64,000 nucleotides of DNA, taken from NCBI GenBank assembly GCA_002269645.1, contig NIVC01003811.1, forward strand, positions 11,866 to 75,865, written 5' to 3'. The first letter of the stretch is position 1. Each line of letters starts with the position of its first letter. This stretch comes from Macrostomum lignano. Taxonomy: Eukaryota. This document shows, piece by piece, positions 8,124 through 39,642 of the stretch. The notes beneath the pieces are model-generated. The model did no database searches and was not told the DNA's origin. It worked only from the letters and a program-made list of their open reading frames with translations. The position numbers were made by a program, and so were the translations under genes.

Positions 8124-10338
8124 TGATGTAACCACGCTCTGGTCGCGGGATAGGGCATGGGAACTTTTTCGAAAGTGCCTCCTATCCCGTGCACCCTCTG
8201 CACAGAGCTGTCGGGACTCGGCCAGGTCTCCGACCGGGCCTGGAGACTCCCGCTCTGCTGCACCCCTCCTGCTGCCTTGGTCCCGTCTCTCCTGCCGCCA
8301 CACCTGCCTTTCCGGAGCCCCTACCCCTTTCTGTACCTCCCCCTCTACCCTATCTCTTCTGTTCCCGCCCTATTCTTCCTGTACTTTCTCTACCTCCTCC
8401 CTTTTTTTTTCTCCCTCTGCACTCTTTTCCTGCGCTGTCCCCTCTTTCCCTGTGTCTACTTACAGTACTTTGTGTGCTCACCGTCTCCCCATCCCCTCTC
8501 AAACTCCCAAACGGTGACGCAAGTCGTGTGACCCCTTCTCCCCTCGGTGACTCATCGATGACTCATCCCCCTCTCTTGCGCAACCTTTTCTCACGCTATT
8601 GTTCTCCTTCCCAAATTTCTCATGTGACACCCACCCCACCTCCGCTTCTATTGTTCTCGTTTTTGCTTCTTTTGTTCTCTCGACCCCCACCAATTATCAC
8701 ATTTTCTCCGATTTTCTCTTTCTTTTGTTCTCGTTTTCGCACCTAATTATCACCTTTTCTCCAATGTTTACTTTTCCATTGTTCTCAGTTTTCCCCAATT
8801 ATCCCCGATTTCCAATTCCTTTGTTCTCGACCCCAGCCCTATTGTTCTCAATGTTTGCTTGCGCAACACTTTCGCGACCACCCGCTGCGCCAATTATCCC
8901 CCACCCCACCTCCGGATTGCGCAATTTCCCGATTTCTCATGTTGCTATGCCGGTCTCATGCTTCTCATCATGACTCATTCTGACGTCATTCTGCCGGCAG
9001 CCAATCAGAGAGAGGGAGCCATGGTAACGACCTTGAGGAGGCGGCTGTGAGGTCTATAAAAGGAAGCGATTTCGGCATGAGAATACTCAACTGAGTTTAT
9101 CTCTGTTCCTCTCCTCGTCCTTCTTTGGACTTGCTGTCAGATTGAGTTCTGACCCATTCGTCTATAAGACGAATCCCTGCCGGCCCGCGGTCTGTTACCG
9201 CCAAGTTATCCTTAGCTCCCCAAGTGAGCTCGCCTATCGGCCAGCGGTCTGATACCGCCCAGCATCATCAGCATCGCCTGATCTACATCAGCGCCTCGTC
9301 GCTCCAGCGCATCGCCGCTTCACCGTCTGCCTGACTGCAGCCTACAGCCGCCCTCGGTCACTCCGCCTCTCTCTCTCTCTGTGCAGCTGCCGGTAAGTTC
9401 CTGCTACTAATTTGTGCTCTAATTGCCTTTGCTTATCCGGGGTTTGCCTATTTTCCATTGTCTGATTAGAGAGCTGAGCCAATTGTGATACCGTATCTTT
9501 TGCTGTATTTTACTCAATAGTGAAGCCGCCTAATTGCCTGCTTATTTGCCTAAGGGCCTAATTATTAACTATTAACTAACTTCATCATTATTCAATCTTT
9601 CACCATCATTTCACTCATGGCTTGCTAAGCCTTTCTCCCGGGGTGGCAAAGCATAAGGAAGTTTGGGTAAGCTAATGGCCTCTCCCCGTGCAAAGCCCGC
9701 CTGTGAGTGCGTGCTGCGGGGCCGCGTGTGCGTGCAGTAGAGGGATTAGCGAGTCTTGGCACAGAATGGCAGTAGGAAGGTTGCAACCCCATGCTAACGC
9801 GTCCCTTCGCCCTGAGCAATCTAAACTGTAGACAGTACATGTTCGCCTCATACTACTCTTAGTAATCAAAGTCGCAAGTCAGCCTCGCTCACAGCCACAA
9901 AGGATCCCCTGCTGAGAAATCCTCCAGGATTGAGCCCAGAGTTCCCGATCATGCCCAAGCAGAGTCCCTGTACTCGGCTGCATGCGTCTCCCCTGTTAGC
10001 CTAAATCCCCTGGTAACCAATCCAGGCGGGGCTCTAGCCTCGAGAGGTCTGGTAGAAAGATCCAGGTGCGCCAGGTCACATAGAGTGGTGGCAGCCACTC
10101 GGTCATACCATGACCGAGTGACCAACTATTGCACCTTGGCTACAGGTGGGGTCCATGTGGGTCCTTGGCCCTCTGGTCACGAAGCGCTACCAAAGCTACT
10201 AATCATGTGGGCGGGACAGTCTGGTGCTGGAGGTCCGTCAGGTCATTGCCCGGTCATAGGCAGCCTACGGTCATTGCCCCCTCTAGCCATGCGTTCGTCT
10301 CTCTACGGAGCGGACAGGCGACAAGGGCGGTTACATCA
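8124..10338 (+). repeat. 5' LTR of element 1
   Basis: Near-identical to 19059-21273; by eye about 2 substitutions and 2 homopolymer indels. Confidence 0.95.
8548..9060 (+). promoter_or_regulatory. LTR U3 enhancer/promoter (repeated at about 19482-19994)
   Basis: TGACTCA at 8548, 8559, 8971; TTGCGCAA at 8576, 8859, 8917; TGACGTCA at 8981; repeated CTATTGTT and AATTATC; CCAAT at 9001; TATAAA at 9055. Confidence 0.65.
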
Positions 10339-10341
10339 AAA

Positions 10342-10359
10342 TGGTGGCAGCGGTGGGAT
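10342..10359 (+). promoter_or_regulatory. Primer-binding site, tRNA-Leu
   Basis: TGGTGGCAGCGGTGGGAT, 3 nt after the LTR end, is the 18-nt complement of the recalled tRNA-Leu 3' end ATCCCACCGCTGCCACCA. Confidence 0.85.
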
Positions 10360-12709
10360 CTGGTGCAAACAGCGCTGAGTTTCGGACTGGTGGTTTAGAT
10401 GTGACAAGCGCACCTGTGGCATCCCTCAGAATGGTGGCCGAAGCGCAAAGAGTGCCATGTCTAAATCTACCAATCGTAAAAATCGCCAATCGTCATTCTC
10501 TTTCCCATGGCGTGAGGCAACAAAATCCAAAAATATTAATGTAACTTTTCAAATTTTTCGGGCTGCGAATTCGTTCAATTCATTCGAAATTTCCAAATTC
10601 ATTCATTCGCCAAAGCCCCTGATTCAATTTAAAATTAATTTAGCCGATCAGTTTCAGCGCTAGAAAGTGTGAAGTGGTAGACGAGCGGATTTGATTACAA
10701 TCAGAATAGCTACCTGGTAACGGAGTGTGTGAAGAACTGCGAAAGTGAATTTTCCGGACTCACTTTCTATTTCATGGTAATATGCTTTATTTCCCCTCCC
10801 TTTCTTTCTCTCGCCTAGCCTACAGCAGAACTGTGTGAGTGTTGAGGTGGACAGCCAGCCAGGTACGGAAGCCTCATCACGCAAGCACAGGGAAGCTGGA
10901 AGCGAAGCATTTCTTTCCTTTGTCCTACCTCTTTCTTTTACTCGGGGGAGTGTAACAGTCGCTCTCCCTGATCGCTCAGTTAATCCTAGAAATGCGTAGA
11001 GACCGGAGCGTGTTTTGTTTGTCCATTAGAATGAACAGCTATCAAGGGCTATGGGGAACTCGCTATATATGCATAGTAAGGGAAGCAGTAGTCATGGCCT
11101 TGGAAACATTGGGGGATACCAAAGTCTCGCAGGAATGGGAATAGCGGTGTGATTGTATCTCTGTAGGGTATCAGTGTGACTCAAAAATCTCGGGCTAAAA
11201 AAAGTGTCACCTCCTATGGAATACCTGCGATCAGCCCGGACCTGAATTCTGCGGTAACCCCTGGTGCCTTCATGGCTGGGATTCGATCCCAACGTGTCTG
11301 CTGACTCTCCCCACTGTATTGCAGACCCGGTAGTAACTGCTTTGGTTGCATTTGGGCTGGTGCAGTGGCTGGAAATAGTAGATCCCATAGTATCCTATTG
11401 ATAGTGGAGTTCAGTGAGTATTGGAATGGTGTACTGGAAGTCTGGTGGCCCCCAGTGATCTCGTAATGTTTCCTGCTGCATTCTCCTCCTTTAGTAATTC
11501 CTCCCCCCTGCTGTCAGTCTGATAGGGGAGGTGGGTGTGCCAATCAGCCCGACCCGGTAGAACGGCGCTCCTGCCCGACTTGTCAGCCTGGCCCAGGAAG
11601 GCGCTATTGCGCAACTCTTTTCCCCTCTGGCCACTGCAGCCCACTAAGCGCTTAGACGCAGGGTTGCATGCAGTCCCCTAATGTAAAGCCCCGGTACATA
11701 GAGTGCCACCCCAGTGCCCCGCAAGGTCAATAAGACGGGTTGACGTCTCTGGCAACTTGGAATAACCTAGATGGAGGTACCGCTGTCTCCTGGTAGAACC
11801 GGGCGTTCAAGTACAGTAAAGTGGAGAGGCTGACAACTGTAGGACTTTCTCCGCCATCAGATAAAGGTCCCAAGTATGCTATTTCGAGCTGCAGCAAAGG
11901 TGGAGTATCGGAGGGGCAAGCATTTCAGGAAGATACTCACTTAGGTCTGTTTATCCTAGGAAAGCGGGCGAGAGTTTCAGGCTTGTAATCCGCCTAACCT
12001 GAAAACTTCGGGGACAGTTTAGTCTGGACTCCCGCTGCGCGCCTTCGCTCTGAACAGAAGGGGGAGGTCTTGGTTTTTGTGGATTCTGCTAGACGTAGGG
12101 GAGCTGGATTCCCGCCTTTTGTGAAGCTGCGTGTACAAGATTGGTAGTCCTGAGGTGGAAGCCCCACTGGACTCCGACGGTTTTCCGGCTGTGCAAGGGC
12201 AGTAAAGTGGGAGGACCTCCATGGGGATTGCTCCCGCCACTTGGGTTTTTGGGTCCAGGCGCCAACGCTTCTTCGTAGTAGCTTTCTTAAGGAAATGGGG
12301 CCCGGCGCGCAACCCTAGGGGAGAATTTGTACAGGTGCCGTAAGTCCGTTTACGGTCGGCATTTGGGTTCCCTAGCATGGCCGCAAAATGAAGGTCAAGT
12401 CTCTCTGAATAGCCAATTTTTCCCTGTCAGGATGTGCCATAGACAACTGGTAGTGGTAGCCGCAGTTTGAGTCAGTGTGCTTTGCCGAGTGAAGCCGTTA
12501 GGACTGCCTAAATGGAATTATGTGGAGCCACCCGTTTTTCAATTTGTTTTCTTCGACGCCGCAAGTATGTGGGTTTTGTCTGTGTTTGTGTGTGTGTGAG
12601 TGTGTTTGTGTGTTTCGGATCAACTTTTCGGTCTTTACCTGTAGTTGCCCCGGTTTTCTTTTCTTTTCCTTCCCGGTGGTGGGTACTCCCCCAGCTATCC
12701 GGCATTCAC

Positions 12710-14155
12710 ATGTCACGGGCGCGTGGAGATAGGGTCGTAGAAGCTGTGTGCGCAGACGCCCCTGGTCAACCACCCTCGGCCGCTGACACCCCAGCAGTTG
12801 CCGCCCCCGCAGCCGCAATGGCCGCAGCCGCTGGTAACCAGGTCCCTCAGCCTCCAGAAGCAGTAGTAGTTGAGGAACCAGATGAAGGAGTAGCAGCTCC
12901 CGCTCCCAATCAGGGTGGCGCAGCAGCCGCCGCTGCTCCCCCGGACGCAGCCCAGAATCCTCCTCAGGCAGTCCCGCAGCTAGGAGACTTAGTTGCCGCT
13001 ATAGCCAATGCGTTTAACCAGCTAAACATGGGCCAAGACGCCCAGAGGCCGAAAATCTACGTAGAAAAGTTCTCTCCCGGCGAACACTGTTTTGTGCAAT
13101 GGGTAGAGAGAATGATCTACAAGCTGGACGCGGAGAGAACTGTAGGAGATCAGGCTAGGAAGCAGGTGCTCATCTCGCACCTCCCAGGTGAATTTCAGAA
13201 CTTAGCCTTAGGATTGGACGGGCAATTGCCCTTTGAGCAGTTCGTATCTAGATTAGGAGAGCAGTTGGGCGAGGCCAACACTGATCTGGCTAAGAGAAAT
13301 AAGCTGAAGAATCTGAGCCAGAAACCCGGCCAATCACATAGTGCTTTTGCTGCTATGATAAGATCTCAGATAACGGCCATGTTTCCTCAGATTCAGGGTG
13401 AGCAGAGAGAACAAGAAATCGTGTACACCTACTTGGAACACGCTAAGCTCCCCCGCCAGGTCAGACAAGATCTGTTGAGCCGTCGCTGGCAGACAATTGA
13501 GCAGGTGTTAGAACAGCAGCAAGCCCTGTTAGAAGCCGCAGACTTAGCCGGGAAATGGGACAGTAGTGGCCCGCCCAGGTCTGAGTCCCGCACCGAAGTC
13601 CGTCTGCAACCTCAGCAGCCACCCAGGCCCCCTCGCAAGTGGGTCAGGATGGTGAACCAGGAAGCTGACGAGACGGAGGAGGACGGTGACGGCCTATCAG
13701 AGATGCAAGAGAGGTTGGGCGCGCTAGAGCAAACGCAAAAGGATCTGCGCAACCAGCTGGTGCAGCTCAATGAAACTATGAAGGCGACAGCAGAGTCTGT
13801 TGCCCAGCTGCCCCAGCAGATGAGGCCCCCTCGCCCCGCCACTCCCAACAGGAACTGGAGGCAGGGGCAGGGCGGCTCTAATAGCAGTAGGAACTGGCGC
13901 CAACCCCAGCCCCCGCCGCTTGCAATTCAGGAGGCGCCCACGCCGCCGGCGCCGGGTGTGCAGCAGCAGCAATTGCAGCTTCGTGCGCCACCTGATCGCC
14001 ATAGGCAAGATTTAGAGGAGTGGGGCAGAGATATGTTAGACGAGGCTACCAGGGAGAGGCAGGAGAGGCTCGCCCAGCTGCGCGCGCAAGCTCTGATGCC
14101 TCCTCCTTCCACGCCTGAAGAGCCCCCGGGTTCGGGAAACCCGTGGGAGGGCTGA
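12710..14155 (+). CDS. gag: Gag (Ty3/Gypsy-like capsid; no CCHC knuckle)
   Basis: Likely ATG at 12710 (MSRARGD...) within ORF 12512-14155. Ala/Pro-rich N-terminus, capsid-like core (EKFSPGEHCFVQWVERM...LKNLSQKPGQSHSAFAAMIR), a coiled-coil segment and a Q/P/R-rich C-terminus. Confidence 0.8.
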   Translation: MSRARGDRVVEAVCADAPGQPPSAADTPAVAAPAAAMAAAAGNQVPQPPEAVVVEEPDEGVAAPAPNQGGAAAAAAPPDAAQNPPQAVPQLGDLVAAIANAFNQLNMGQDAQRPKIYVEKFSPGEHCFVQWVERMIYKLDAERTVGDQARKQVLISHLPGEFQNLALGLDGQLPFEQFVSRLGEQLGEANTDLAKRNKLKNLSQKPGQSHSAFAAMIRSQITAMFPQIQGEQREQEIVYTYLEHAKLPRQVRQDLLSRRWQTIEQVLEQQQALLEAADLAGKWDSSGPPRSESRTEVRLQPQQPPRPPRKWVRMVNQEADETEEDGDGLSEMQERLGALEQTQKDLRNQLVQLNETMKATAESVAQLPQQMRPPRPATPNRNWRQGQGGSNSSRNWRQPQPPPLAIQEAPTPPAPGVQQQQLQLRAPPDRHRQDLEEWGRDMLDEATRERQERLAQLRAQALMPPPSTPEEPPGSGNPWEG

Positions 14156-14196
14156 ATGGCCCGGCCCGAACTCAGCCCCGTTCCCTCTCTAGGGCC
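14134..14196 (+). promoter_or_regulatory. -1 programmed ribosomal frameshift signal
   Basis: Slippery heptamer G GGA AAC (14134-14140) in the Gag frame; 8-nt spacer; stem 1 GGGCTGA (14149-14155) with TCAGCCC (14172-14178); loop GGCCC can pair with GGGCC (14192-14196) as an H-type pseudoknot. Confidence 0.8.
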
Positions 14197-14658
14197 CAGC
14201 TTAACCTGCCACGTCCGCCCAGCAAGAAGTTTAGATTTGAGAAGGTACCCGATTTCTATCAGCCAAGACCAGCTGGAGGACAACGCGGGAGAGATATTGT
14301 TGTAGAGTTGCCAATTGAGAATGTTCCCACCCGCCTCCTGGTAGATGGGGGCAGTGCGCTGTCTTTGCTAACAGTCAAAGACTTTACTAAAATTACCGGA
14401 CAGAGTGTGGAGGCCCTGGAGCCCCCATGTGTGAAGGCCGTGTCCTACACGGGCAATGAATTAGAGATGCTAGGCCAGGCCACCCTCACAGCAGTTATTG
14501 GGCTAGAAGAGGTGAGAATCCTCTTTCTGGTCGTTGGCAATTCAGCAGCAGTTTCCCTCCTGGGTAGTGCTTTTCTAGCCAGTACGCATGCTATCATAGA
14601 CTATCGAACAGAAAAGGTTTACTTGCTAGGTGTGAGTCTCCCATTCGACCCCCGCTGA
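14134..14658 (+). CDS. pro: Retropepsin-like aspartic protease in the -1 frame, ending in TGA
   Basis: LLVDGGSALSLL active-site motif, a ...SYTG...LG flap region and the C-terminal LLGSAFL motif; stop at 14656-14658 right after the domain. Confidence 0.85.
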   Translation, partial: GKPVGGLNGPARTQPRSLSRAQLNLPRPPSKKFRFEKVPDFYQPRPAGGQRGRDIVVELPIENVPTRLLVDGGSALSLLTVKDFTKITGQSVEALEPPCVKAVSYTGNELEMLGQATLTAVIGLEEVRILFLVVGNSAAVSLLGSAFLASTHAIIDYRTEKVYLLGVSLPFDPR

Positions 14659-15737
14659 GTAACAGATCGGTAGCTAGCCAGTGATTGCTTAATCCCCCCC
14701 CGATTCGCGTGTCGAAATTTTGCTCGTGTTGCCCCGTTGGAGACCGCTTTTCGCGTATTTACGTATGCCCTCTATTACTCGAATTTATGTTGTGACCTCG
14801 TGCTCGTTGGTGTTGTTTAAATATCTAAGATTTTAGCTCGAAAATTAGGCCCGTACAGTATGCGTTAATTCCCTATCAGTAAATATTAACTTGGAAACTA
14901 GTAAAATTTCTATGGGTCTGCTCCACAGGAGGTCCTGCCCCGCTGTTCAAGATTTTCTGGGAACAATGGAAGTCTGGGACCGTAGGAAATTAGCACCTTT
15001 AGGTCTGATTTCGTGTGTTTGTTCACACTTTGTGAAAGTCCGATTTTGGGAAACTTTTAATTGGTTTCGATGAGGCAATAGGGGGGGCATTCAATGTAAT
15101 TAAGTTTATCAGGCAAATGGGGCAGCAATTAGTTTAGAGTAGGCCAGTGGTTTAGTCAATGTAAAGTCAGGTAAGTAATTAAAGTCAAGTTATGGGGACA
15201 GATAGTTCAGAATTAGTAAGTAAGCATTAAGAACCACCAGCATCAGCAGTTGGGAAGCCGCAGAAATAGCTCCAAGAGCAGTAGCCAGTGCATTGTGAGA
15301 CCGGCTATTAGGGCCGTCGACAGCACGACCAAATGCCAGGAGCCGTCGGTCTCCACCACAGGGGTTGGCAAGGGCTGTGGAGCGGCAGCCACGGGCGTCA
15401 CCGCGGCGACCGGCGGCGGAGCGTGCGCTCGGGCTGACAACGGCGGTGGTACCGGATGCCAACCGGCCCCGGACGCTGGTTCGCTGGCGGCCCGGCGGTC
15501 GCATGGCCCGGGAGCCGCGGCGCCTATGCACCAGATGGCGCAGCCGGCCCAGAATCAGAGGGGGCGTCCGGCTCTGAATGGCTGTCTTCGGGCGCTTCGT
15601 AGTCGGACTCCTCTTCAAGGATGGGCTCGGCTACTAGCGGCCGGAATCCTGAAAATGAGAATTTAAGGGATGAAATAGAAGTAGGGAACTAGCCGGGTAT
15701 TAGGATGTAGATAGATGGGGATTTTAACTTTATGGCG

Positions 15738-16105: not shown

Positions 16106-16439
16106 TCAAATTAATGATTAATTCCTCTTTCGAATTCTTTCGGCTGTTAAGTTTATGAGGGTCTCGGAGGCATGGATGAGAACTGCGTGCGCGTGGCGTT
16201 GAAGGAAGAAATCGAAGGGAGTTGGGCCGCATCATCATTTATCCTCCGGAGTCTAATCTCCCAAATCCCTCTTCTATTCATATTAACCAAATTAATTTGT
16301 GTGCCTGATCTGAATGTGTGCATGTGAGGTGGGAGTGCGATCTCTGTCGGCTGGAGTACGGATCTGCCGCGGGCGCGACCGGAGGTGGTCTCGGGTCTGC
16401 CCCCTGCTCACAGGTGAGGAAACAGGAAGCGGCGGAACC

Positions 16440-16560
16440 AGCCAATCAGAGCGCACGGAGACTAGAGCGAGCGGTCCCAAGCCAACGGCGACCCCGGCCG
16501 CAGCAGGTGTGCCTCCCAATGTGCTCAACCAATGGGAAGCCAGCCCCGGCACTATAAGAA
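16440..16560 (+). promoter_or_regulatory. Putative internal promoter for the cargo ORFs
   Basis: GCCAATCAGAG at 16440 (same 11-mer as the LTR CCAAT box), a second CCAAT near 16529, and CTATAAGAA at 16552, about 100 bp upstream of ATG 16652. Confidence 0.5.
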
Positions 16561-16651
16561 GACCCACGCCTGCCAGAGCTGGAAATCATCAATCAGAGAA
16601 ATCATTCTGTCCTTCAATCGCTGAAGCATTCTATGAACTATCCAGCTTGAC

Positions 16652-17221
16652 ATGGACACGAAGCCTACCATCAATCGAATTCAGCTATGCTCCAGCTTAC
16701 CGTCTGAGCGTCCTGCCAGCCCAGTTAGCCGAAAGCGGCCCCGTGACGCCATCCAAGAGGCGGAGGACGGCCCCGAGCCGCCAGCGGCGGCCTCCGCCAG
16801 GGTCGAAGAAGGTGACGAGACAATCGACCCGGCCAATGCTGGGGGCGACACCGCGGACATTTCGGACATGGCGGCCGAATTCGGCGAGGCGGCCCGCCGC
16901 CTGCGTGATGTTCTGCCCAACAGCCGCCGAAGTGTGGACATCGCCCTGCAAAGAGAAGAAGTCGATTGGGGTCAGGTGGCTGGCGAACCTTCGGCGACAG
17001 CTATGGATCTGGTGCACTGGGTCGGGCCTGAGTCCTATCATGGCCCACTCCAGGCCGAGGACAGGCATGCGACTCTAGAGCGCCAACTTCGCGACAACCT
17101 GGACCGGCCCTGTCTGCTCATCCTGTCAAAAGCGGCCCTGCTGGGATTGGTTGACAATACGCTGTTAATGTACATCGAGGCAGCGGCCCAGAGCGCCTAC
17201 AAATACGCCCTCGCGACCTAG
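16652..17221 (+). CDS. Orphan cargo ORF A (189 aa)
   Basis: ATG-initiated GC-rich ORF; RKRPR (NLS-like), acidic disordered N-half, helical-looking C-half; no family recognised. Confidence 0.6.
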   Translation: MDTKPTINRIQLCSSLPSERPASPVSRKRPRDAIQEAEDGPEPPAAASARVEEGDETIDPANAGGDTADISDMAAEFGEAARRLRDVLPNSRRSVDIALQREEVDWGQVAGEPSATAMDLVHWVGPESYHGPLQAEDRHATLERQLRDNLDRPCLLILSKAALLGLVDNTLLMYIEAAAQSAYKYALAT

Positions 17222-17379
17222 TCCGGCAGGCCGCCAAGTTCCTCCGCAAGGTTGTGGATGAGGAACCATCACACCTGACAGCCCGGCCGCCGTCCTGTGC
17301 CCCCATCACAGCAATCTTCAGCACCTGCGATCGGCCGGTCTACAAGAAGGTGATCATCAGCTGCGCAGCCTCCTCTCAG

Positions 17380-18000
17380 ATGACTAGACAACTGACGCCA
17401 ACCCAGAGAGCCCGGCTATTGATTGGCCTGGCCAGCTTGGCCAGCCGCTGGGGCATGCTTCCTGCGGACCTGCCAGGGCTGCTCTGGGGCTTCCTGAGCG
17501 AGGGCGCCGAATGGGAAGAGGCTCTCGTCATCCACGACGGCATTCTTGCGGCCTCCGCGCCGGCCTCTGCGCCCCTCCTCTATGCGCCGTTTGCCACAGT
17601 GGCCTGGGCCGCCACTCTCTCGCAACGGTTCAATCGCCGCTGTGGGTGGGTGTTGGCGGCCCTGGGCGACGTTGAGCCCGGCTACGCGGGCCTGGCCGAG
17701 GTGCCCCGTGGCACTTTGCAGCATTTTGCAATCGCGCAGCCGCCCCTGTCTGCACCAACTCTGACACGGCTGCAACAAGTACGGAATGCGGCCTTCGTCG
17801 TCCAATGCCAAGCCCTGGGCATCCCGACTCTGCCGCAGTTGAGGGGCGTGCTGCGCAACGACATCTTGCCTAGCCGATGGCACCGAGTGGTGCTCACGGC
17901 CGCGGCAGCCCAACGTTATGTGGAAGCATGGGCAAGTGCCATGGCTCAGGTGGCGGCATATGGCCCGTACCAGCTAAATCAAGAGGCCCATTTCGAGTAA
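17380..18000 (+). CDS. Orphan cargo ORF B (206 aa from ATG 17380; frame open from 17155)
   Basis: Long GC-rich frame overlapping the end of ORF A; first ATG preceded by CCTCCTCTCAG (acceptor-like); Ala/Leu/Trp-rich globular-looking sequence; no family recognised. Confidence 0.6.
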   Translation: MTRQLTPTQRARLLIGLASLASRWGMLPADLPGLLWGFLSEGAEWEEALVIHDGILAASAPASAPLLYAPFATVAWAATLSQRFNRRCGWVLAALGDVEPGYAGLAEVPRGTLQHFAIAQPPLSAPTLTRLQQVRNAAFVVQCQALGIPTLPQLRGVLRNDILPSRWHRVVLTAAAAQRYVEAWASAMAQVAAYGPYQLNQEAHFE

Positions 18001-19041
18001 GGATGCCGACTGCCTGCTGAGCGACGTCCGCCGGCCGGTCCGACCCGCCTTTCCGCCCCCTTGCGTTGTGTGTTTGTCGTGTGTGTGTGTGTGAAATTAT
18101 CCTATTAATATTCGGTTCTTCCATAATATTCATTTTTAAACTTTAATAACCAATATACGAGTCATTGTTGTGTCATTATCTAAAAATTCCTAAAAATGGC
18201 TCTGTGTTGGCTGCTCACTACTTTTACCGTAAGAAAGGCCATATATTATTACTGCAATTGGCTCAGTTTAAAACGAAAGGCATGGCGAGTGGGTAGATTT
18301 CGTTTAACGTATAGGCGAAAGGAAATCAGGTTGGTGATGGGACTTACCGAGTAGTTGTATAGTTTGGAAAATCGCGCTGAGTGCCTTGGTTGGAAACTGC
18401 GACTCCGTGTAGGTTGCAGGCAGCCGGCTCCCGTTATCAGTGGCGCCTTTTATACAGTGGCCAGCGCACGGCGCGGCGCCTCCCAGCCTACAACCGATCG
18501 CCCCGAAGCCCTCTGACTGGCTGAAGCGGGGTCCGAGCCTTCAAGGACGCTAGGCCTCCGTGCGGTTGAACTCCCGGCGAAATTAGCTTATTAATTTACT
18601 GCGCTGCATTAGTATTTTTCCCCTGTGTAATCGTCATTCTCCCCGAGGCTCTGCCCTTGGCTGTGTGCTAGCAACCCTTCCCCCCTTCTTTTTCCCCACT
18701 TCCCTCACCCTTCCCCGTTTCCTCTCTTTCCCAGCTGCGCTTCTATCCAATTATGATAATTTATTGTTGACAATTCGCTATTTTTCTCCCTACTATTGCG
18801 CTGTCTGTGTTTCCCCCCTCCCACTTTAGCCACAGCAACAGTTGAAATTTTTGAAATTCTGTATTGCACTCCAACCTATGTATCTCGTTTGTGAATTTAT
18901 TGCTATCCCCTCTATTTTATCGCCTTTTTCCATTCCCGCTCGCGGTTTGTTAATTCTGTGATTTCACGTTCGGTTGAGGTCCCGCTCCCGTCTGTGTGGT
19001 TCCATGTTGGGCAGTGATGATGACGGAACCAGTTCCGTCAC

Positions 19042-19058
19042 AAAAGGCAGTGGGGGTG
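19042..19058 (+). promoter_or_regulatory. Polypurine tract of element 1
   Basis: AAAAGGCAGTGGGGGTG directly before the 3' LTR, preceded by the hairpin TGACGGAAC-CA-GTTCCGTCA (19021-19040). Confidence 0.7.
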
Positions 19059-21273: not shown

Positions 21274-23423
21274 TCTATGGAAATCCGCTTCCGTCCGGAC
21301 GCTCTGCTAAGAAAATAACTGTTCGGATTTATAACTGAAAGCGATAAAATATGTTCTGCCGTTAATCTGAAGATACCCGAAATTCTTGCGTTTATTAAAT
21401 TTGTTCTCTTCCCCAAATTACCTCACATCGAAAGAGGCAGCTTGAGTAGAAAAAGAGCGACGGAAGGCGCTGGCGAAATAGAGCTGAGTACTGAGAGAAA
21501 AATTATGAGTAACACGAGGTTTGTGGGAAAGAACAAGGCAGATTAAGGCAAGGATTTGAGGAAGGGCGAGATGGAGGTAAGGGGAGCGATGGGCGACAGT
21601 GAGACAAATGTACCTACTTTTTGACATTTAAATAGCTTTCAGACGCAGTCTCTGTTTTGTCTGTTGTCTCTTCTTTAAAACTTCTTTTGCACAAGTCTCA
21701 TTGTAATGTCTTGTGCATTTTGAAGTTTTTTTACTGTTTCTTGAACATTTACATGCGCATTTGACAACCGTGGCATTTTTTTAGCTTTTCAAAATAAAAA
21801 GCTTTTATGCAATAAAGTCTAATCGTTATTGGAAAGTTTTACAACGTAAAATTTGTTAATGGTACATTTGCTTCTAAAAATAAGAATATTTTGCCACGTT
21901 TTCGCTCATTTATCGCGTCGTTCTTTGATGCAAATTCGTGTCCAGAACATATTCCGGTACTTCTTTTTTTAATCCAGCTAAGAGATCTAAAAGATCTATT
22001 TAAGAGGATTTTAGCCATTTTTAATGCCTCCCAGAGTATTTCCTATGTAGCTCCCCAATTTCGTCACGCCAGGAGCACCCGTGCATGGGTTGTTGCACTT
22101 CAGAGGAACTGGGCAGCTTCGCTTTTCATGAAAAGTGTCGCCGTATTCGCTGGCAGCTTGCAGACACTATGCGGCTATGCGGCTGATGTGCTATCCTAGC
22201 GGTCCGGCAGTCGGATATTGAGACTAAATGCTGAATTCTGATAAAAAATCGATATAAGACCCAATAAATGTGCTATTTTAGCCCACTAGAAGCGCTTCTA
22301 ATAGGTTCTGAGCGACCGCGTTGCCGTCTTTCGAACGCATTTTGCATGCCCAATCAAAATTTAGCGTGGTCCGGATGGTGTCGGGCGGTTCTACGAGTAT
22401 GTACTCGAGCTCGAATGGCTGGTATGTGCATGGATTACTTTAGTAAGTTGACCTGAGATTTTGAAAAGTCGAAATTTTTTTCAAAATGATTGCCCAATTG
22501 CAAAATGACTCTTTCCCAATGATTTTGGCATGAGAAATCGAATGGCGAAACTCCGGAGACGCCAGGCAGTGAGGCAAAAAAGTTGGAGCTATTTTTAACT
22601 TTTTCTCGGCTTAGAGATTTGGAATCTCAAAGTCTGATATTCTAAAGTAGAAATCTCAAAGCATTGTATAGTGCATTTCTGTGCCTAAAAGTTCACTATC
22701 TACGTATTTGTGCACCATTTGCACAGCACCTAGCGATATCACGGACCAGAACGGGGTGAATCCTGGGTGATTTAGTGAAAGTTGAGATGTTCCAAAAGTC
22801 AATTAAGATAAATGTCAATTACGAAATTTATTGTTGCTCTAAATCGACTAAATCGATAAGAATCAGATGGTTCTTATGGATATAAAGGAAACACGTAGGA
22901 GCTAAGACAATATATTTCAAGGAATGGAGAAATTACAAAATTACAGACGCAAAATGGATTACCAAAAGTACGCTGATTATGTCCAGAAATTTTTTGTCGG
23001 GATGCGTGCAGAGCACCCCGAGAGAATTACACTTTAAAACTTACTCATGTGGCTAAGGTATACGTATTGACCTAACAAATGGATTGCTACTAACAGCTTG
23101 CTGGGTCTCGTTTCTATCAGAAAAACAAACAGAAGACATGGATCACATATTGTATCCTAGTTTAGTGTCTTAGAAATAAGTTCCTTTCACTTATATTGAT
23201 ATTGCTTCCGTAAACCACTATTAAAAGTCTATGAGATAACTGTTTCTTAAATATTTGTGTCCACAATGCATATTGTTTCTAGTACGGCTAGTGCGGGTTT
23301 CACAGATCAAGTGAATCCGTATGGAAATTTTAAATAGATCATCTTGCTCGTCCCACACGCCGTTTACGAAGCACCATCTGAGATTTTACTTGCCGCGATC
23401 GCAGCTGCATCGGGACAACCGAC

Positions 23424-23519
23424 TCTTGCTCGTCTCCACCCAGCTCCTGCTCGTCTCCGCCCAGCTCCTGCTCGTCGCCGCCCAGCTCCTGCTCGTCGCC
23501 GCCCAGCTCCTGCTCGCCG
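23424..23519. repeat. 21-bp tandem repeat (about 4.5 copies)
   Basis: GCCCAGCTCCTGCTCGTCGCC units (ELGGDEQ on the minus strand). Confidence 0.9.
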
Positions 23520-24277
23520 ATGTTTACTTCAAGGTTATTGACTAACTCTTCGTTATAACGGCTATGATTGGGCTCATTGTTCTGTAACGGAATAGCTGAG
23601 CAGAGATCAACCACAGAATGAAGCATACGAAGAACGCGGTCATTCCCACGGAGCGCCAACAGGGTGAGCGAACGTTGAAGTACACGTCGCATGTGTGGTG
23701 ATGTGCACGGACGAGCAAAGCAAGGTTGGTGAGGTAAATTTACTGTCTGAGACGGTGTAGAAAGACGACGAAGCCACTCTTTACCATTTTGGTGGTGCTC
23801 GCCATGGATTGCTTCACCATATACGCCATGTAGAAATACAGCCACTTTAGGCTCCTCAATGGAAGTAATAACAGACACTCGGTCTTTACCACACCGCTTG
23901 TAGCCATGCTGACTGTAAATGTGAACACAAGACGCAGTCATTCCACGAGTACAAACACAAAGCCTTTGGAATATACTGCGCAAGTAGATCTTGTGGGAGT
24001 GCAAACACCACAATTACAGAACCATCAGGACATGGCAGTGGCGGACCAGGCTGCGGTAAGTCCACAGTAGGTGTAGTCTGTAGGAGGTTCAGCTGCAATT
24101 TTTATGGGATTTTAGAAGTCTAACATTAGCATCTAAATTGACAGACACTCAGAAAGACTAGGATCAGAGACAATAGTACTACAGAGATACTATTTGTGCT
24201 TGTCCTATAGTTACTACACTTTACATTTTTGAACCAACTCAATGCAAACTGAAAAGTAGTGCATACCATCTGATACC

Positions 24278-25035
24278 AAGTAATGCCAAATAAGTGTTAA
24301 GTAATGCCAAGTGTCTGCCAACTAATGCCAAGTAAGTGCCAAGTAATGCCAACTAATGCCAAGTGTCTGCCAAGTAATGCCAAGTGTCTGCCAAGTAATG
24401 CCAAGTAAATGCCAACTAATGCCAAGTAAGTGCTAACTAATGCCAAGTGTCTGCCAAGAAATGCCAAGTAAATGCCAGGTGTCTGCCAAGTAAATGCCAA
24501 GTAAATGCCAAGTAAGTGCCAAGTAATGCCAAGTAAATGCCAAGTAAGTGCCAATTAATGCCAACTAATGCCAAGTGTCTGCCAAGTAATGCCAAGAAAA
24601 TGCCAACTAATGCCAAGTAAGTGCCAAGTAACGCCACGTAAGTGCCAAGTAAATGCCAAGTAAATGCCAAGTAAGTGCCAACTAATGCCAACTAATGCCA
24701 AGTGTCTGCCAAGTAATGCCAAGTAAATGCCAAGTAAATGCCAACTAATGCCAAGTAAGTGCCAAGTAATGCCACGTAAGTGCCAAGTAAATGCCAAGTA
24801 AATGCCAACTAATGCCAACTAATGCCAAGTGTCTACCAAGTAATGCTAAGTAAATGCCAAGTAAATGCCAAGTAAATGCCAACTAATGCCAAGTAAATGC
24901 CAACTAATGCCAAGTGTCTGCCAAGTAAATGCCAACTAATGCTAAGTAAATGCCAGGTAATGCCAAGTAATCAGTTACTTGGCCAGGCCTAGGCCTATGG
25001 CATTTGCCAAGTAAATGCCAAGTAATGCCAGGCCT
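24278..25035. repeat. 10-11-bp satellite (AATGCCAAGT[A])n
   Basis: Continuous degenerate array with variants AATGCCAACT and GTCTGCCAAGT. Confidence 0.95.
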
Positions 25036-26189
25036 ATGACAATCTAGTATTCTAAAAATGAAAATATATACTAATAATAGAATCTTCAGTTTGTAATACT
25101 CTAAGTTAGTTATTAAATAAGTTTGGACTTTGATTGTAATCATAAAAGATAAAAAGCAAAGTAAGGCACAAAATGCTATAATTGTATAAAACTTTTATCA
25201 GTCTAATTAGAAGGCTATGACAAAAAAGTACATATTGCATTTTGCTATTATTCATTCCAAATTTTGTCTAAAAGATATTATAATTAGAAAATATAATAGG
25301 CCATCCTTAAAATATTCACTATTGAATATTTGAAAATTGAATTTGTATCAAAGCAATTTCTTTTCATGTTCAAATCATATAGGCCTAGTAAACTTTGTTA
25401 AAACACTCAAATATTCTACAATATTGTATTATATTTAGATGCCCAATTAAAGCATAAAATTGTTTAAAATATCTTGAAAAATTACTATAAATATATGGGT
25501 GGTTAGGCTCAAAGGAATCATCTTACTAATGAGCAACAAAGAGCAATTAGCTTGAAAGTGAGCAAATCATTGAAGTCTAAATTCAAGAAGTATTCCAATC
25601 ATTTAGATTGTGTAATTGCTATGACCCTCTAGATCACAATGCCTAGATTATAAGAAAGAGTGCCAAGCTGCTTGGGCACAACCACTACCAAAGAGAGGAA
25701 GTTTAGACAAGAGGAATATTAGTAGTAAAGTGTATTATATACTTTATAAAGTATATATAAACTGTATGTAAGTTAGAACCAAGAGAAAGAATAATAGAGA
25801 GCCCTAGGGCAAAAATAGACAACAAACTAAGTCTAGTTATCAACTTAAAAGCATTTCCAATTTGCTATTAAATTTATAAGGCCAATAGACAAAGTGAGAA
25901 AGCAAATTTTAATAACCCCCATTAGATTATGGTCCTTTCTTAATTTATTCTTCCTATTGTCAAATTCTATAAGTATAATCAATATCATGGTTTTGCTATT
26001 CCCGAAACTTCCTTAAAGTAGAGTAGGATAAAGTAATAAAGTTAAATATTAATTGTACTCTTTGTGCACTGCGGAAAATTTGCACAGATGAGATGCAAGT
26101 ATTTTTATCTCGTCAAAATAAGCCGAACCTCTTAAATACATTTACAGATACAAGTACATGTACGAGCTCGTAACTGACATAAGTTAGAA

Positions 26190-26645
26190 AATAAGAAAGA
26201 ATATATATCGAATAGAAAATAGGAGAGAAAAGAGAGGAAGGAGAAAGGAGAGAGGAGAGAGTAAAGGGAAGAGAGAAAAGATAAGTTTGTAAAGATAAGA
26301 GAGATGAAAGGAGATGTAAGAGAAATGGAGTGGAGGAGAAAGGAGAATAAAGGGGGAGAATCGAGAGGACAGGAAGAGAGGGGAAGGGAGAGGAGAGAGT
26401 AGAGAGTAGGGAGAGAGTAGAAAGGAGAAGAGAGATGGGAGAGCACGAGAGGTGAGAGATGAGAGGGAGGAGAGAGTAGAGAGGAGAGGTAAAAGAGTAA
26501 AGGGGAAAAAGTTGAGAGAAGGGTTGGGAGAGTTGGGAAAAGAGAGAGATGGTAAAGGAGAGTACAGATGAGAAATAAGACGAGGAGGTAAGACAGGAAA
26601 TAAAAATTAGGAGAGAGGGTCGAGACAATAGAGGAGAGAATAGAG
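26190..26645. repeat. Purine-rich (AG) low-complexity tract
   Basis: Almost entirely A/G on the plus strand; gives spurious Leu/Ser ORFs on the minus strand. Confidence 0.9.
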
Positions 26646-26666
26646 AATTTCGCACTGACCTAAGGG

Positions 26667-27110
26667 GTGCGAACAAACACGAGAAATTAAACTGAAATGT
26701 GCTAATTTTAACAGTCCAACTTTTATTGTTCCTACAAAATTTTAAACAGCTGGGTAAGACCTCCTGCAGAGCAGACCGATAGATATTATTCTGGTTTCCA
26801 AGATAATATTGACTTACAGGGAATAAACATACCGTACGGGCCTAATTTTTGAGCTATAAATGGAACATAATGGAAAGCGTACATAAATATGCGAAAGGCG
26901 GTATTTAACACGAGCAAACTTTCAATACGCTAATTGGGAGGGGATCAAGTAATCATGGGCTGACTACCATTCTGCCACTCAGCAGGGGTCGAACGGGAGA
27001 CTAACTCCTAATAAATTAACTTTCTCAGTCCTATAATCTATAATAGCATGAGTGCTAGCTAGAAAGGCGCTGCCCAGGAGCGACACTGCCGTCAAATTGT
27101 TAACAATTTC
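26667..27110 (-). pseudogene. pro: Fragment of a diverged relative of element 1: protease C-terminus, stop and about 310 bp of downstream non-coding DNA
   Basis: Translates AVSLLGSAFLASTHAIIDYRTEKVNLLGVSLPFDPC*, versus ...KVYLLGVSLPFDPR* at 14548-14658. Nucleotide homology continues to GTGTTTGTTC.CAC (matching about 15015-15027). Confidence 0.9.
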
Positions 27111-27433
27111 TGTCTTGGGAGCTAAGGGTACAAGCCGGAACAAGAGGGCGGTACCGTTGCTATCCACACCCTAGAGATCAATGTAGATGTAAGAATAAAG
27201 AATTTACAGTAGGGGTTTGCAAATTGCTTGTGCTCCCTTCTTTAAGAGCCTTATTCCTTTCTTCTTTCTCTGTCCCCGTCACTGCTTGGTTGTTCTTTTT
27301 ACCTTGATTGAGAACCCAACTCATGACTGGGTCTGCTTCGTTGGGCCCCTAAGTGAAGCGAGGAGTCCTGATGACAGCGGGCCAGAGGTGAGGAGCAGGG
27401 TTTTTTTGTGCGCAGAGTGTGCGTATGCACCCT

Positions 27434-27977
27434 AAATTTTATGCAGATGATCGCAAGACGAAACCGAAAGAGCTTGTAGGTTTCGAATTACGATTACCGC
27501 ATTAGTAGAATTGTATTGGAGGGATCGTATGACGAAAGTGAATGGATTGCTACGTATATTAACTGATTAATATATTAACTGATCATCGTATCTTAAAACT
27601 ATTTGTTATAAATTCGCACGCCACGCCCCCCCCCCTAACTTTCATCATACGATCACCCCTTGGTATAACACAGGTCCAATGAACTGGGGGATCGTAAGAC
27701 GAAAGTGAGGGGGGGCCGCGCGCCCGAAAAGGTTGTATTACAGTTTTAGTAAAAAAGCTCTTCTCATGTGCGCCACAGGGACTCGGCTTTCTGCCCGCGG
27801 ACATATCGTAGAGGCTAGCTGCAATTGATTGTTTAGTTGAAACAACATCCATTATAGCGACAACTTCCTAATATTTCGTCATACGATCCCTACAGTACAA
27901 TTTTAACATTAATGTGATCGTAATTCGAAACCTACAAGCGCTTTCGGTTTCGTCTTGCGATCATCTACATATAATTT
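27434..27977. mobile_element. Non-autonomous TIR element (MITE-like), about 110-bp imperfect TIRs
   Basis: Left AGATGATCGCAAGACGAAACCGAAAGAGCTTGTAGGTTTCGAATTACGAT... is inverted at about 27870-27977; exact ends and TSD not resolved. Confidence 0.75.
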
Positions 27978-30566
27978 CACCATTTAAATGATCGCATGAC
28001 AAAAGTGAATACGTGCGTGCAATTAACAATACATATAGCGATAGTAAATTGTACCTTGGACATACATTTATCTAGCTATAGATACTGTACACCAACTTGT
28101 GTGTTACTGTATGCTAAAGTACTGTGTATGCTAAAACTGCACTTGGAAATCGTCAAAATCATTTATAATTTTTAGCCCTATTTTACTCGTAGACATTTGA
28201 TAATGTTTTTGCATTATCAGCTGTAAGGCCATAGTTCAAGTAGCTCAGACAGCTGTAGTTCAGGTAGTTAAATTTAAACTTATCTATACACACAACTTTC
28301 AGTCTTAATGGCTGGTAGTGGCAGTATATGGTATAAGTTATATATTTACTCGTGATGTGGCCGCAGCCTTCTGCTGCAAGCATAGGGCCGCAGTCACATC
28401 TTAGGCACTGTTGTCCGCTGCTAGTATCTGGAATAGGAATTTTTCTGCTGCCTCCATGCACTCTAAGCAGCCTTCCTTAGCGCTCAGAAGTTGCACAATA
28501 TGGCGCAATCCTTAACTTAGGAATTTAGGGAGTTTTGCCTAGCCTAGGGTTAGTTAGCGGAAGCCGCCAAATTTGGCGCTTGCCTGTACTGTTGTTGCCT
28601 GGCCTGCCGCGTACGATCGCTCAGAGTACGCTAGTCTAGTTAGCCGCACTCCTCCCCCGTGCGCTCTCTGGACCCTTCCCCCTTCTGCTCTCTCGTCACC
28701 TAACGGCCGTGGGCTAGCCAGACAATCCACTACACAAAAAATACCTGGCTAGCCAGTGAGTCCACGTGTGGACCCACACAGGCTAGCCTAGAGAGTCCAC
28801 ACAGTGCGCACAGTGATAGTACGCTAGATATGCCAAGGAACGCTGCTATTGGTCCGTGTAGGCTGGGGTCGAGTGCACCCGCGGACGGGAATGAGAAGTC
28901 TGGGAATTCTCAGTGCTAAAAATAGACACCGCTAAAAATTGGTCGAGTGGCCAGTGCGCCTGACTTGAAATTGGAAGGTTTGAGGTTCGAATCTTGCTAG
29001 ACAAAATATTTTCTTGATGTAAGTATTGTGGGTGTAAAAAAAGCAGAAAAGGCAGAAGACCAAAAATTAGCATTTAAGTGAACAACATTAAATTATGGTA
29101 AGGATTATTACTATTAAAATTAGAGGATTATTAAGTTTAAGCGATGAAAATACGCGGATTAGAAAAGTAGTATTGAAAGAGTAAAAAGTATTATTTATTC
29201 GAACATAAATAAAAACGGTGGAAATGATTTTTTAAAATTTAGTATTAGCATTCATACTTCGTCTGTAATCATAGTACTTTAAATCAGTAGCTCATTTTGG
29301 GTTTGTAGAATTTAAGTGATTAAGCTGGTGATAATGCATTGGAGAGCCACTCATAAGCCAAATTGATTTATTATCGGGTTAGCCAATAGCCTTAATACTA
29401 AGATGCACAGCACAGGTAGGCTCCTTGCATGCACGCGCTCACAGCTCACACTGCTGCCAATATCAGCAGCAAGCTCAACCGCCTGCAAGTTAGCGATGTG
29501 GCAGTCCATTAATGTGGCAGTTGCAGGCCTAAATTGGTAACTCTCATGAAGTCATGCACTCATCACTCATGGTCTGTGTTTTTTTTGGTTTGTTTTTGTT
29601 TTGGCACGGTTTGAGTCTAGCAGTGCTAATATTGAACACTTAGTAATCTTTTGTAACACTTCGGGTGAAGCACATTTAGTTCCTGTCATATTTATTGTCA
29701 TTGAAGTCGAAGATCAATTATACCGGTACCGTTTCGACGTATCGTAATTATTAAAAAAGAATCTATATTTGAAAGTTTAACTGTTGTGCCACCTTAGATA
29801 CATTTTTTCTGGTAAAAAAGTCTTAAATGTTTTATGTATTGTAATAAAACTTAAAAACTCCCCTGCTTTTATCATGGACGAGTAAAAAAATCGAAAGGTA
29901 AGTTCAGTTTTGTTAGTGTTTTCCGTAGCTGTTGACAACAAGAACTCAGTTACTTTTCATTTAATGTATCGTAAATTTATGATTTTTAAAGTTCATATGA
30001 GAATGCAGCCTAATTGTTTTTATGAATTGTCATGCATTTAATACAGTTCTAGAGTAAAGTAAAATTATTCAGACACTTTCTCAAGACCTCAGGCAGTACA
30101 TTCGCGGCATTCGCCGTGCAATTTTATAATTTTTGGAGGCTAATATCCATCAAAAATAACAGTGCGGATGCGGAGACAGGAAAAGCGTCATTTTTGCATC
30201 ACAAGATCAAGCGATAGCATTTGATCTCGGTTAATGAAGACTACCATTCTTTTAATTTAGGATGCAAAGCATGTCAGTCTGTTGTATTTTATACATGTAT
30301 GTTGCCTGTTGCCTGTTAGGTTTAAAAAGTTTTTGTTTAATATAGATTATATTAATATTTAATCTGAATATAATTTAGATATAATTCTTTTTTAGATTTT
30401 TACAAGCCAAAGGTTATAAATACTCACTAGTGACATTAGTATCAGTAGCCGAAATATTTTGTTTTGCTTGGTCTTGAAACAAGTATATATATAATGTAGC
30501 ATATAAAGTGTGAAAAAGGGACACAACAGTAAAAAAATTCATAAGTGTATTAAAAATGAAAACTAG

Positions 30567-31392
30567 TGTGACGTTGTCAGTTTAAGGTGGTCCCGAAAAA
30601 GGCCGTTGGACTGCTGTTTCTCCATAGTTTCAACCCTTCAGTTCACCGTTTCAACTAAACTTTTCCATTTGTTTATTGCGACGTTTACTTGTAGTAGTGC
30701 CCAACGATTTTGTGTCAATTTCTAATTCACTGTATATTTTGCTATCCTCTCTCGCGACCGTATAAAATTGGCACGATCGATAATTTTAAGTTCTCTCGCC
30801 AGCCGATGAAAATCACTCGTGCTTACGCTACCCCCCCCCTTTTGCGCTTCTTTATTAACCCTCGCCTGGCGGGCTGGGGGTTTCACTCGTCCCTGTTCTT
30901 GTGTTCTGTGTTCTCTCCTTAGGCTTGTCCTCCGTCCCGTCTGGCTTGCCTAGCCTTGTCTAGCCTTGTTTTCCTTCTCTCTGTCTGGCTGCCTCGAGCC
31001 TCCTTACCTCACGCCACGGTTGACGCCAACCTCGCCACTGCTCATCTGCCTGCCTACTGCGTCTCACTGCCTTCACTGTGCTCATTGCCATTGCTCATCA
31101 CGTTACATCGCCATTGCACCGTCGTCTGTCACCTGACTATCCAATTTATCTTCAAAGAAACCATTGTTGCAGCCGCCAGTGCCCAGAAAGCTATAGTTTG
31201 TTTATTGACATAAATTCTAACCAAGCCTAATATTGATACTACCAATAAAACCAACTACGGCAGTCCCTGCCTTTATCGCCAAGTGCTCCGCTACAAATCC
31301 GCTTTACAAGAATTGACTTCAACTTATTTTGGGACTAAAACGGCCCTTTTAAGGGTCATCGCATAGCTAGCCGCTACGTCAATAACGTGACA
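30567..31392 (+). repeat. 5' LTR of element 2 (826 bp)
   Basis: Matches 39643-40471 except for short homopolymer/dinucleotide indels; TATAAAA near 30761 and AATAAA near 31244. Confidence 0.95.
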
Positions 31393-31398
31393 TAATTT

Positions 31399-31415
31399 TG
31401 GAGGTCCCACCGAGA
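31399..31415 (+). promoter_or_regulatory. Primer-binding site, tRNA-Gln
   Basis: TGGAGGTCCCACCGAGA is the complement of the recalled tRNA-Gln 3' end TCTCGGTGGGACCTCCA; 6 nt from the LTR end. Confidence 0.8.
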
Positions 31416-31635
31416 CGCCTACTCAGCACTGCCGGCTCGCAACTAGATCAGCGCCATCAAGACTTCGTCTCAGTCCTGCCAGTTCGAAACCAAGCACCAG
31501 CCACCACCGAGACGCCTACTCAGCACTGCCGGCTCGCAACTAGATCAGCGCCATCAAGACTTCGTCTCAGTCCTGCCAGTTCGCAACCAAGCACCAGCCA
31601 CCAGCGAGACTTCTGCTCAGCTCTGCCGGCTCGTG
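31406..31635 (+). repeat. 97-bp tandem duplication in the element 2 leader (2 full copies plus a degenerate partial third)
   Basis: CGAGACGCCTACTCAGCACTGCCGGCTCGC... at 31411 and 31508; degenerate copy at about 31605. Confidence 0.9.
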
Positions 31636-32134
31636 ACCGAGCACCTGCCTGCCTGTGCCACGCCTGAGGTTTGGTCCGCAAGGCTGCGAGAGCCTGTGCC
31701 ACGCCTGAGGTTCGGTCCGCAAGGCTGTGAGAGCCTGTGCCACGTCAGGCCCAGGGGTCCTGATCGTCACCGGTCGTCGCTGGTCATCCGCGGGTCGTCG
31801 CTGGTCGTCGCCCTGAGCAACGCGCGCTGTCAACTGCGTTGAGCTCGAGCTTACGCTCTGCCAAGATAGCTCCGCTGCGTGTGCCAAGCCACGCCAGGTT
31901 ACGCTGTGCGCTGATTGTTTGTAGGGACTATTGCCTGACAGTTAGTCTGGGTGGTTTGCGTGATGGGACTTTCCCCTATTATAGGCTTTTTGTGGTTTGC
32001 CCCTGTCAGGCACGTATTTTTGTTAGTAGGACGCAATCTCTCTCATCTCTCTCGCGTCATCAACCTCAATTCGTTTTCTCTGGAGCCTTATTTTCGTTCA
32101 CGCTTGGTTCATTCATCTCGCTCAATCTTGCACA

Positions 32135-37899: not shown

Positions 37900-37915
37900 C
37901 CGCCAGTTTTTCACG

Positions 37916-38052
37916 CCCCGGGCAAGGCGTAAAACTACCTCCTATGGCACCTGCCGGCCACAGGTCACTGCGGCGCCTGTAGACCGCAAGCTCAGTCCCC
38001 GGGCAAGGCGTAAAACTACCTCCTGTGGCACCTGCCGGCCACAGGTCCCTGC
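37916..38052 (+). repeat. 81-bp-period direct repeat after the pol stop
   Basis: CCCCGGGCAAGGCGTAAAACTACCTCCT.TGGCACCTGCCGGCCACAGGTC at 37916 and 37997. Confidence 0.9.
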
Positions 38053-39628: not shown

Positions 39629-39642
39629 GGAAGGGAGGCGGG
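39629..39642 (+). promoter_or_regulatory. Polypurine tract of element 2
   Basis: GGAAGGGAGGCGGG immediately before the 3' LTR. Confidence 0.85.

Follow-up and report, generated by a model that had tools for sequence, protein, structure and literature searches.

The window analysed here, a stretch of 64,000 nucleotides from Macrostomum lignano, is repeat-rich eukaryotic DNA, and its positions 26667 to 27110 raise a question: what is a short piece of retrotransposon protease that ends at the same stop codon as the protease of a full-length element in the same window (element 1)? A preliminary description had read it as a second lineage of long terminal repeat (LTR) element with the same protease-then-stop design, still selected after the loss of pol. 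We asked what this fragment is, how it arrived where it is and what the family it came from encodes.

The protease fragment and its carrier

The fragment and its surroundings comprise the following features:

26979..27104, minus strand: captured C-terminal 41 codons of a protease with the TGA, from a donor lineage with about 80% DNA identity to element 1
26667..26978, minus strand: captured non-coding tail from behind the stop, with internal deletions, as defined by alignment to element 1
26043..27395, minus strand: carrier remnant, a non-autonomous DNA transposon (family B) with both terminal repeats missing, as defined by its match to family B

The fragment lies on the minus strand, and formal alignment places window positions 27104-26667 against 14533-15028 of element 1 (481 columns, 70% identical, E 4e-63). 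The final 36 codons of the protease comprise 15 identical, 19 synonymously different and two with replacements (Y/N and R/C), and our recount agrees exactly with that of the preliminary description. As had also been stated, the TGA (26981-26979) is in register with that of element 1 (14656-14658); for the roughly 310 bp said to be alignable downstream, we obtained 312 fragment bases against 370 of element 1. Over the 36 codons, pS is 0.74 and pN 0.025 by the Nei-Gojobori method (Fisher p 6e-14), and with dS saturated an exact dN/dS is not obtainable. The cut at 36 codons favours constraint, for the next five alignable codons add three replacements, and homology to element 1 stops at about codon 41 counted from the stop. 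Around the fragment we found no gag, LTR or catalytic motif, and the fragment has no start codon either.

A genome search with the fragment gave at least 60 matches (40 of 131 candidates scored). One is identical and represents a duplicate contig; the others are 74-89% identical, and no LTRs were found around the diverged copies in twenty 10-kb stretches. Copies of family B have sharp ends with inverted repeats starting with GG and are 2.0-6.2 kb long. Among the nine with both ends, the target duplication is an exact 8 bp in six, mismatched in two and unclear in one; two further copies lacking the 3' end stand outside these nine. Capture by a Helitron was rejected, since these ends are inverted repeats with 8-bp duplications. 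Duplications of 8 bp are made by hAT and P elements, among others. Terminal GG and an 8-bp duplication are also given for Merlin DNA transposons in the available text of PMC8101967, and family B has the Merlin-type ends (inverted repeats ending in GG, duplications of 8-9 bp), but no transposase was found in the copies examined and the comparison concerns the ends alone.

For 27 fragment copies, pN/pS is 0.18 against element 1 and 0.82 among themselves (0.62-1.17 for disjoint pairs), and the window fragment gives 0.80 against the other family B copies; one same-locus duplicate and two loci without the protease part were left out of this set. The two replacements of the window fragment are absent or rare in the other copies, which carry Y in 22 of 22 and R in 23 of 26, and the TGA is kept in 26 of the 27, the remaining copy not being aligned there. 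Constraint relative to element 1 together with neutrality among the copies implies that selection preceded capture and acted on the donor and element 1 lineages. The proposed selection on the protease thus stands for those lineages and not for the fragment itself, which is no LTR element in place but a dead passenger, decaying neutrally in a non-autonomous DNA transposon. We give virtually no credence to selection on it today, whether as a live element or as a host-adopted exon: the low pN relative to pS against element 1 would suit such a role, but the ratio within its own family, the missing catalytic motif, start, gag and LTRs, and its position in a truncated DNA transposon all speak against it. 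No intact donor was found in the genome searches with the fragment (40 of 131 candidates scored) and with the protease (150 of 968). Taken alone, the fragment is an ordinary fossil that records a third lineage of the gag-protease elements described below.

Several other repeats were seen in the window. A small element with 104-bp inverted ends (88% identical) adjoins the carrier remnant at 27434-27977, and a minisatellite with units of 10-11 bp occupies 24245-25030. A complete young Gypsy element at 30566-40471, whose empty site is present in locus L070, has a cold-shock domain after the zinc knuckle of its Gag (Pfam CSD, E 7e-7). A Helitron Rep/helicase ORF of 2,015 codons lies on the minus strand at 50162-56209, beside a 5-kb minisatellite.

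The gag-protease elements

Element 1, a member of what we call family A, contains the following features:

8124..10338, plus strand: 5' LTR (TGATG...CATCA), 99.8% identical to the 3' LTR, with the 4-bp target duplication TCTA
10342..10359, plus strand: primer-binding site, presumably for tRNA-Leu, common to the gag-protease and pol elements of both families
10339..12919, plus strand: leader (2.2 kb) and the opening codons of gag, shared with the pol partner at 97-98% identity
12512..14155, plus strand: gag ORF with a capsid-like domain, likely start ATG at 12710
14134..14140, plus strand: slippery heptamer GGGAAAC, at which a -1 shift from the gag to the protease frame is predicted, followed by a predicted hairpin (hairpins behind slippery sites were folded without shuffles)
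14119..14658, plus strand: ORF for an aspartyl protease with the active-site motif DGG, ending in TGA
14659..15028, plus strand: non-coding tail after the TGA
16652..18000, plus strand: ORF3, 449 aa in intact copies, of no known family
18225..19058, plus strand: 3' region containing a purine tract; the pol partner has it at 99% identity
19059..21273, plus strand: 3' LTR

At least 33 full-length open proteases of family A, with 94-100% identity, were found among the 150 of 968 protease candidates scored, a count inflated by duplicate contigs. For instance, loci L062 and L069 repeat window positions 14015-24012 and 26225-32015 at more than 99%; as the assembly holds such duplicate loci, copy counts are biased upwards. 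The Gag of element 1 has a coiled-coil-like stretch, recognised by eye; no zinc knuckle was found in it, and no outside relatives of the family A Gag were found.

Fourteen loci whose frames are open over 192-229 codons match the family A protease with 39-43% identity (150 of 968 candidates scored) and define a sister family, C. Ten were fetched, of which seven have LTR pairs 99.1-100% identical; all seven carry gag and protease, and none has a reverse transcriptase (RT) of its own. Termini and primer site are as in family A, and a slippery site, GGAAAAC, stands at the same place as GGGAAAC, but the active-site motif is DSG where family A has DGG. The two families are 41% identical in protease and 71% in RT-RNase H (the latter from the pol elements described below), with synonymous sites saturated. 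The place of strongest internal evidence, which the preliminary description gave to the fragment, therefore belongs to this intact sister family with the same plan.

In none of 19 gag-protease copies from families A and C does an RT, integrase or post-protease domain score above 1.7 bits, which agrees with the earlier proposal that the loss of pol predates the divergence of the copies. Comparison of full-length members disclosed no hidden route to RT. Readthrough or a second frameshift past the TGA was rejected, as an in-frame stop follows four codons on and no frame reaches pol; splicing was rejected as well, the element having no RT and the two joints seen being internal deletions. Short-read contigs from four runs extend without a joint from the protease through the stop into the tail. 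Between live subfamilies dN/dS is 0.03 and 0.04 for the Gag capsid, 0.06 and 0.16 for the protease (0.12 for a third pair, p 0.055), and 0.10 and 0.10 for ORF3, so that all three are under purifying selection. With intact gag and protease, no RT or integrase, and recent spread, these elements have the properties of semi-autonomous Gag-protease elements.

Between the protease TGA and ORF3 lie 2 kb of non-coding DNA. Its first part, the post-stop tail (14659-15028), is 80-81% identical to the donor lineage though synonymous sites differ by about 50%, and is likely a cis element, judging from this conservation. It is absent in family C and in the pol elements, and no stable fold was found in it (z +1.21).

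Regarding ORF3, a TATA-like box was recognised by eye at 16553, and the frame break near 17212 in the window is absent in contigs of four runs. Within a set of 13, its family C counterpart is homologous at E 4e-7 to 5e-5. Gag-protease variants without ORF3 have also spread, so the ORF is dispensable in cis and likely acts in trans. Outside the M. lignano genome one homologue is 34% identical (P0017); no Pfam family, no word-search match and, via Atlas features, no usable match was found. A profile search gave five matches, two of which (P0012 and P0015) align over the core and three are long repetitive proteins that align over short stretches only. A single-sequence structure model reached pLDDT 37 and an alignment-based one pLDDT 62 and pTM 0.64; the model had no match at E 0.001 in PDB and viral libraries (best Z 6.2), a result that establishes the fold neither as new nor as known. 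The extra ORFs of complete relatives are unrelated to ORF3.

Three further observations concern these ORFs and their arrangement. Loci L157 and L158 hold two gag-protease copies in tandem that share the middle LTR, both without ORF3. At L153:8564-9844 there is a decayed, diverged ORF3 (64-81% identical to family A), near which neither gag nor an LTR was found. Three complete Gypsy families have an extra ORF after pol (L111:7594-8559, L112:7224-8099, L114 and L130:1464-2462; mutual E <1e-15), which by eye begins with what we take to be a DnaJ-like HPD motif and in one case has what appears to us to be a chromodomain-like stretch.

A pol partner without protease

Searching with the LTR end and primer site gave 87 places in the genome, of which 20 were fetched for having no adjacent protease match. 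Seven of these have the LTR, leader and 3' end of family A (97-100%) and two those of family C (96-99%), around a different core. A single ORF of up to 1,552 codons makes up this core. It encodes a capsid-like domain, a post-protease domain (possibly dUTPase-like), RT, RNase H and integrase, in that order; Pfam detected the last three and no protease. The RT is Ty3-like (best solved match Ty3 Gag-Pol, E 3e-117), and outside relatives of the pol N-terminus amount to one generic Pol. The gag-protease and pol elements, hereafter the two halves, have LTRs, primer site, leader, start codon and 3' end in common, and short-read contigs branch between them at 12842. TG...CA ends, primer site, purine tract and short target duplication are those of Ty3/Gypsy elements, as is the order RT, RNase H, integrase on the pol half.

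A protease profile scored at most 1.5 bits in 12 of 12 pol copies (one cut by a contig end, with the junction retained), whereas all 12 complete controls, nine of them outside the training set of the profile, reached 45-167 bits; nowhere in the pol half is there a D-S/T-G motif. Other RT-bearing loci have a protease in 25 of 27 cases, and of the two without a match one also lacks the capsid and one has the integrase before the RT. Capsid and RT are 170 and 179 codons apart in the pol half, where the post-protease domain takes up the space between them (E 6e-12 and 3e-15); in 23 complete loci the distance is 386-768 codons. The halves are thus exactly reciprocal at the protease boundary, one ending with the protease and the other resuming at the next domain, and A and C are two parallel gag-protease/pol pairs. 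The idea of a stable pol-less family, as opposed to a recent deletion, is right as to stability, but pol sits on a protease-less element with the same LTRs.

Both halves were recently inserted: LTR pairs of the pol half are 99.5-99.9% identical, and 4-bp target duplications are clear in three of five pol copies, with one in a microsatellite and one not read. Both are present in sequencing runs that we guess to be RNA, possibly DNA. The same frame break, in the early part of the capsid domain, occurs in both C pol copies; around it the contigs of three runs are each gapped, so that an error and a real defect are alike possible; short-read contigs span C pol without extra sequence.

The LTRs of A pol copies differ from those of five A gag-protease copies by 0-3 per approximately 1,200 bases, and four other A gag-protease copies have older LTR variants with 27-106 differences and no pol match. 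Two C pol LTRs are 25-28 sites apart, yet each has a different gag-protease copy at a distance of 5-10 sites, the outcome expected if co-packaged RNAs recombine. From this pattern, LTRs appear to have been swapped between the halves.

No complete member of the clade turned up by RT or capsid search. The former gave ten copies at 100%, two at 78% and the next at no more than 54% (150 of 3,931 candidates scored); the latter, with all 136 candidates scored, gave the two halves and one short fragment only. Within this clade, gag, protease, RT, RNase H and integrase were never found together in one LTR pair: protease is present in 0 of 12 pol copies, and RT or integrase in 0 of 19 gag-protease copies. 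A complete autonomous partner for the gag-protease half was therefore not found, its partner lacking the protease. In contigs of independent runs, protease-stop-tail and capsid-RT are continuous, and continuity from protease to RT was not seen.

Origin, probable mutual dependence and known systems

The capsids of the two halves are only 21-28% identical, but both lie on one side of a 100/100 branch in the capsid tree, where the pol capsids of A and C group together (97/94). Separate splits in A or C were rejected (p-AU 0.013 and 0.008), as was a pol capsid inside either complete group (p-AU 0.0003 and 0.0001), in a test on 18 of 31 rows that left out short or near-duplicate ones. In trees of RT and of protease, an element on a long branch, whose Gag is of a different kind, comes out as sister (support 100 and 72). 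The capsid trees, built from sequences of one genome and with long branches meeting, favour one old split of the halves.

Retrotransposon Gag builds the particle, and Pol normally enters it as a Gag fusion that is freed by the element's protease. Against this background, the sequences suggest to us that the fragment is a decaying piece of the gag-protease half in a DNA transposon, and that its source family is probably half of a complementing, two-part Ty3/Gypsy retrotransposon. The gag-protease half would make most of the shell, together with Gag-protease by -1 frameshifting. With the single frame of the pol half, its capsid and Pol would be made one to one, with no free Gag; its capsid-like domain would carry Pol into the shell of the other half, whose protease would cut it. 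Both RNAs would be packaged by way of the common leader, and template switching would keep their LTRs alike. Before the divergence of A and C, one complete ancestor may have been duplicated and its copies may have undergone reciprocal gene loss at the protease boundary. Three findings count against complementation: the capsid-like domain is only 28% identical to the partner's Gag, the family A protease has DGG and not D-S/T-G, and both C pol copies have the common frame break. With its own diverged capsid, the pol half might form particles alone or fail to co-assemble. On balance we lean, with some reserve, towards the fuller reading of an obligately two-segment animal metavirus: neither segment would move alone, and Pol would be delivered by its own duplicated capsid domain into the shell of the other segment, which that segment would also mature. 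The arrangement would have arisen once and lasted until synonymous sites were saturated in two daughter pairs, with the novel ORF3 riding on the shell segment.

The dependence could instead run one way, with a self-sufficient pol element, its Pol left uncut or cut by a protease of the host or of another family, and a gag-protease element that hitch-hikes, in the manner of wheat Quinta or Sabrina, and uses its protease on its own Gag only. Constraint on the pol capsid-like domain (pS 0.77, pN 0.51, A against C), the many complete protease-bearing Gypsy families in the genome and the excess of gag-protease copies (at least 33 A proteases to at least 10 pol, and at least 14 to at least 2 in C) would all fit such parasitism. 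We nevertheless regard it as unlikely, given the exact reciprocity at the protease boundary, the lack of free Gag from a single frame, the same pairing in two families with saturated synonymous sites and the exchange of LTRs.

Mutual dependence might also have had another origin, the merger of two Gypsy lineages by the taking over of one LTR. Capsids as different as these, and long branches meeting in a tree from one genome, are compatible with a merger, which is nonetheless distinctly improbable: the pol capsid is most closely related to the partner Gags (all 136 candidates scored, none of them a complete family at E 0.001), its placement in either complete group is rejected, and RT and protease occupy the same position in their own trees. 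Very improbable, finally, is an origin of both halves by deletion from a complete parent, either missed by the assembly or recently lost. Only 150 of 3,931 RT candidates and 150 of 968 protease candidates were scored, and the assembly has duplicated contigs and indel errors, all of which leaves room for such a parent; a recent one, however, cannot yield two capsids 28% identical, the reciprocal plan is common to families as distant as A and C, and the independent-run contigs join protease to stop and tail, and capsid to RT, but not protease to RT. We accordingly retain the two-part element as the preferred reading.

Non-autonomous LTR elements are usually viewed as parasites of a complete helper. 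In this case no complete helper was found, and the genes are divided reciprocally over two elements, as in a segmented virus. If this holds, the pair would offer a natural test for the origin of multipartite genomes and of mutual dependence, the Gag-to-Pol ratio could be set by copy number instead of frameshifting, and the system would show how Pol is targeted to the particle in trans. RT-based annotation would call the pol half autonomous and overlook the other, and further pol-less Gag-protease families may have unnoticed protease-less partners. Among the largely open-access main texts searched, no bipartite or protease-less LTR element of animals was found, only plant and endogenous retrovirus (ERV) cases. 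A flatworm LTR family catalogue, cited in the available text of bioRxiv 10.1101/2024.12.18.629116, could list families A and C.

The nearest likeness is to wheat Fatima, where, in the available text of Wicker et al. 2018 (PMC6097303), one subfamily has RT and integrase, others have gag and protease, and mutual supply is suggested. The two halves show a like division, a comparison by RT-integrase versus gag-protease content alone. That case is a short suggestion in a plant genome paper, as far as its available text goes, whereas the M. lignano pairs are from an animal, with the lack of a protease tested in each copy, a capsid-like domain on the pol half, a common start codon and leader, two parallel pairs and an old split tested by trees. 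RLG_Sabrina_SA and RLG_WHAM, which are semi-autonomous, have an intact Gag-protease ORF plus extra ORFs and have co-evolved for millions of years with a pol provider, RLG_Wilma, which the available text of PMC9744471 describes as autonomous, with a full gene set and homology in only a few motifs; the M. lignano provider, unlike Wilma, lacks a protease and has an LTR, leader and 3' end 97-100% in common with its partner. RLG_Quinta (PMC11302176) and the TR-GAG and GAG-PROT families (PMC13570524) are pol-less, with an old Gag lineage of their own and terminal motifs in common with the helper, RLG_Cereba in the case of Quinta. For Quinta/Cereba and TR-GAG the available texts describe a helper that encodes all proteins, and hence a one-way dependence, in contrast to our protease-less pol half. 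MusD/ETn, KoRV/RecKoRV and cattle ERVK C/D have flanks in common and a central segment that is exchanged, and their morphs recombine with each other, one morph being complete and the other without working genes in the available text of PMC10924933; unlike in these ERV pairs, both M. lignano halves code and neither is complete.
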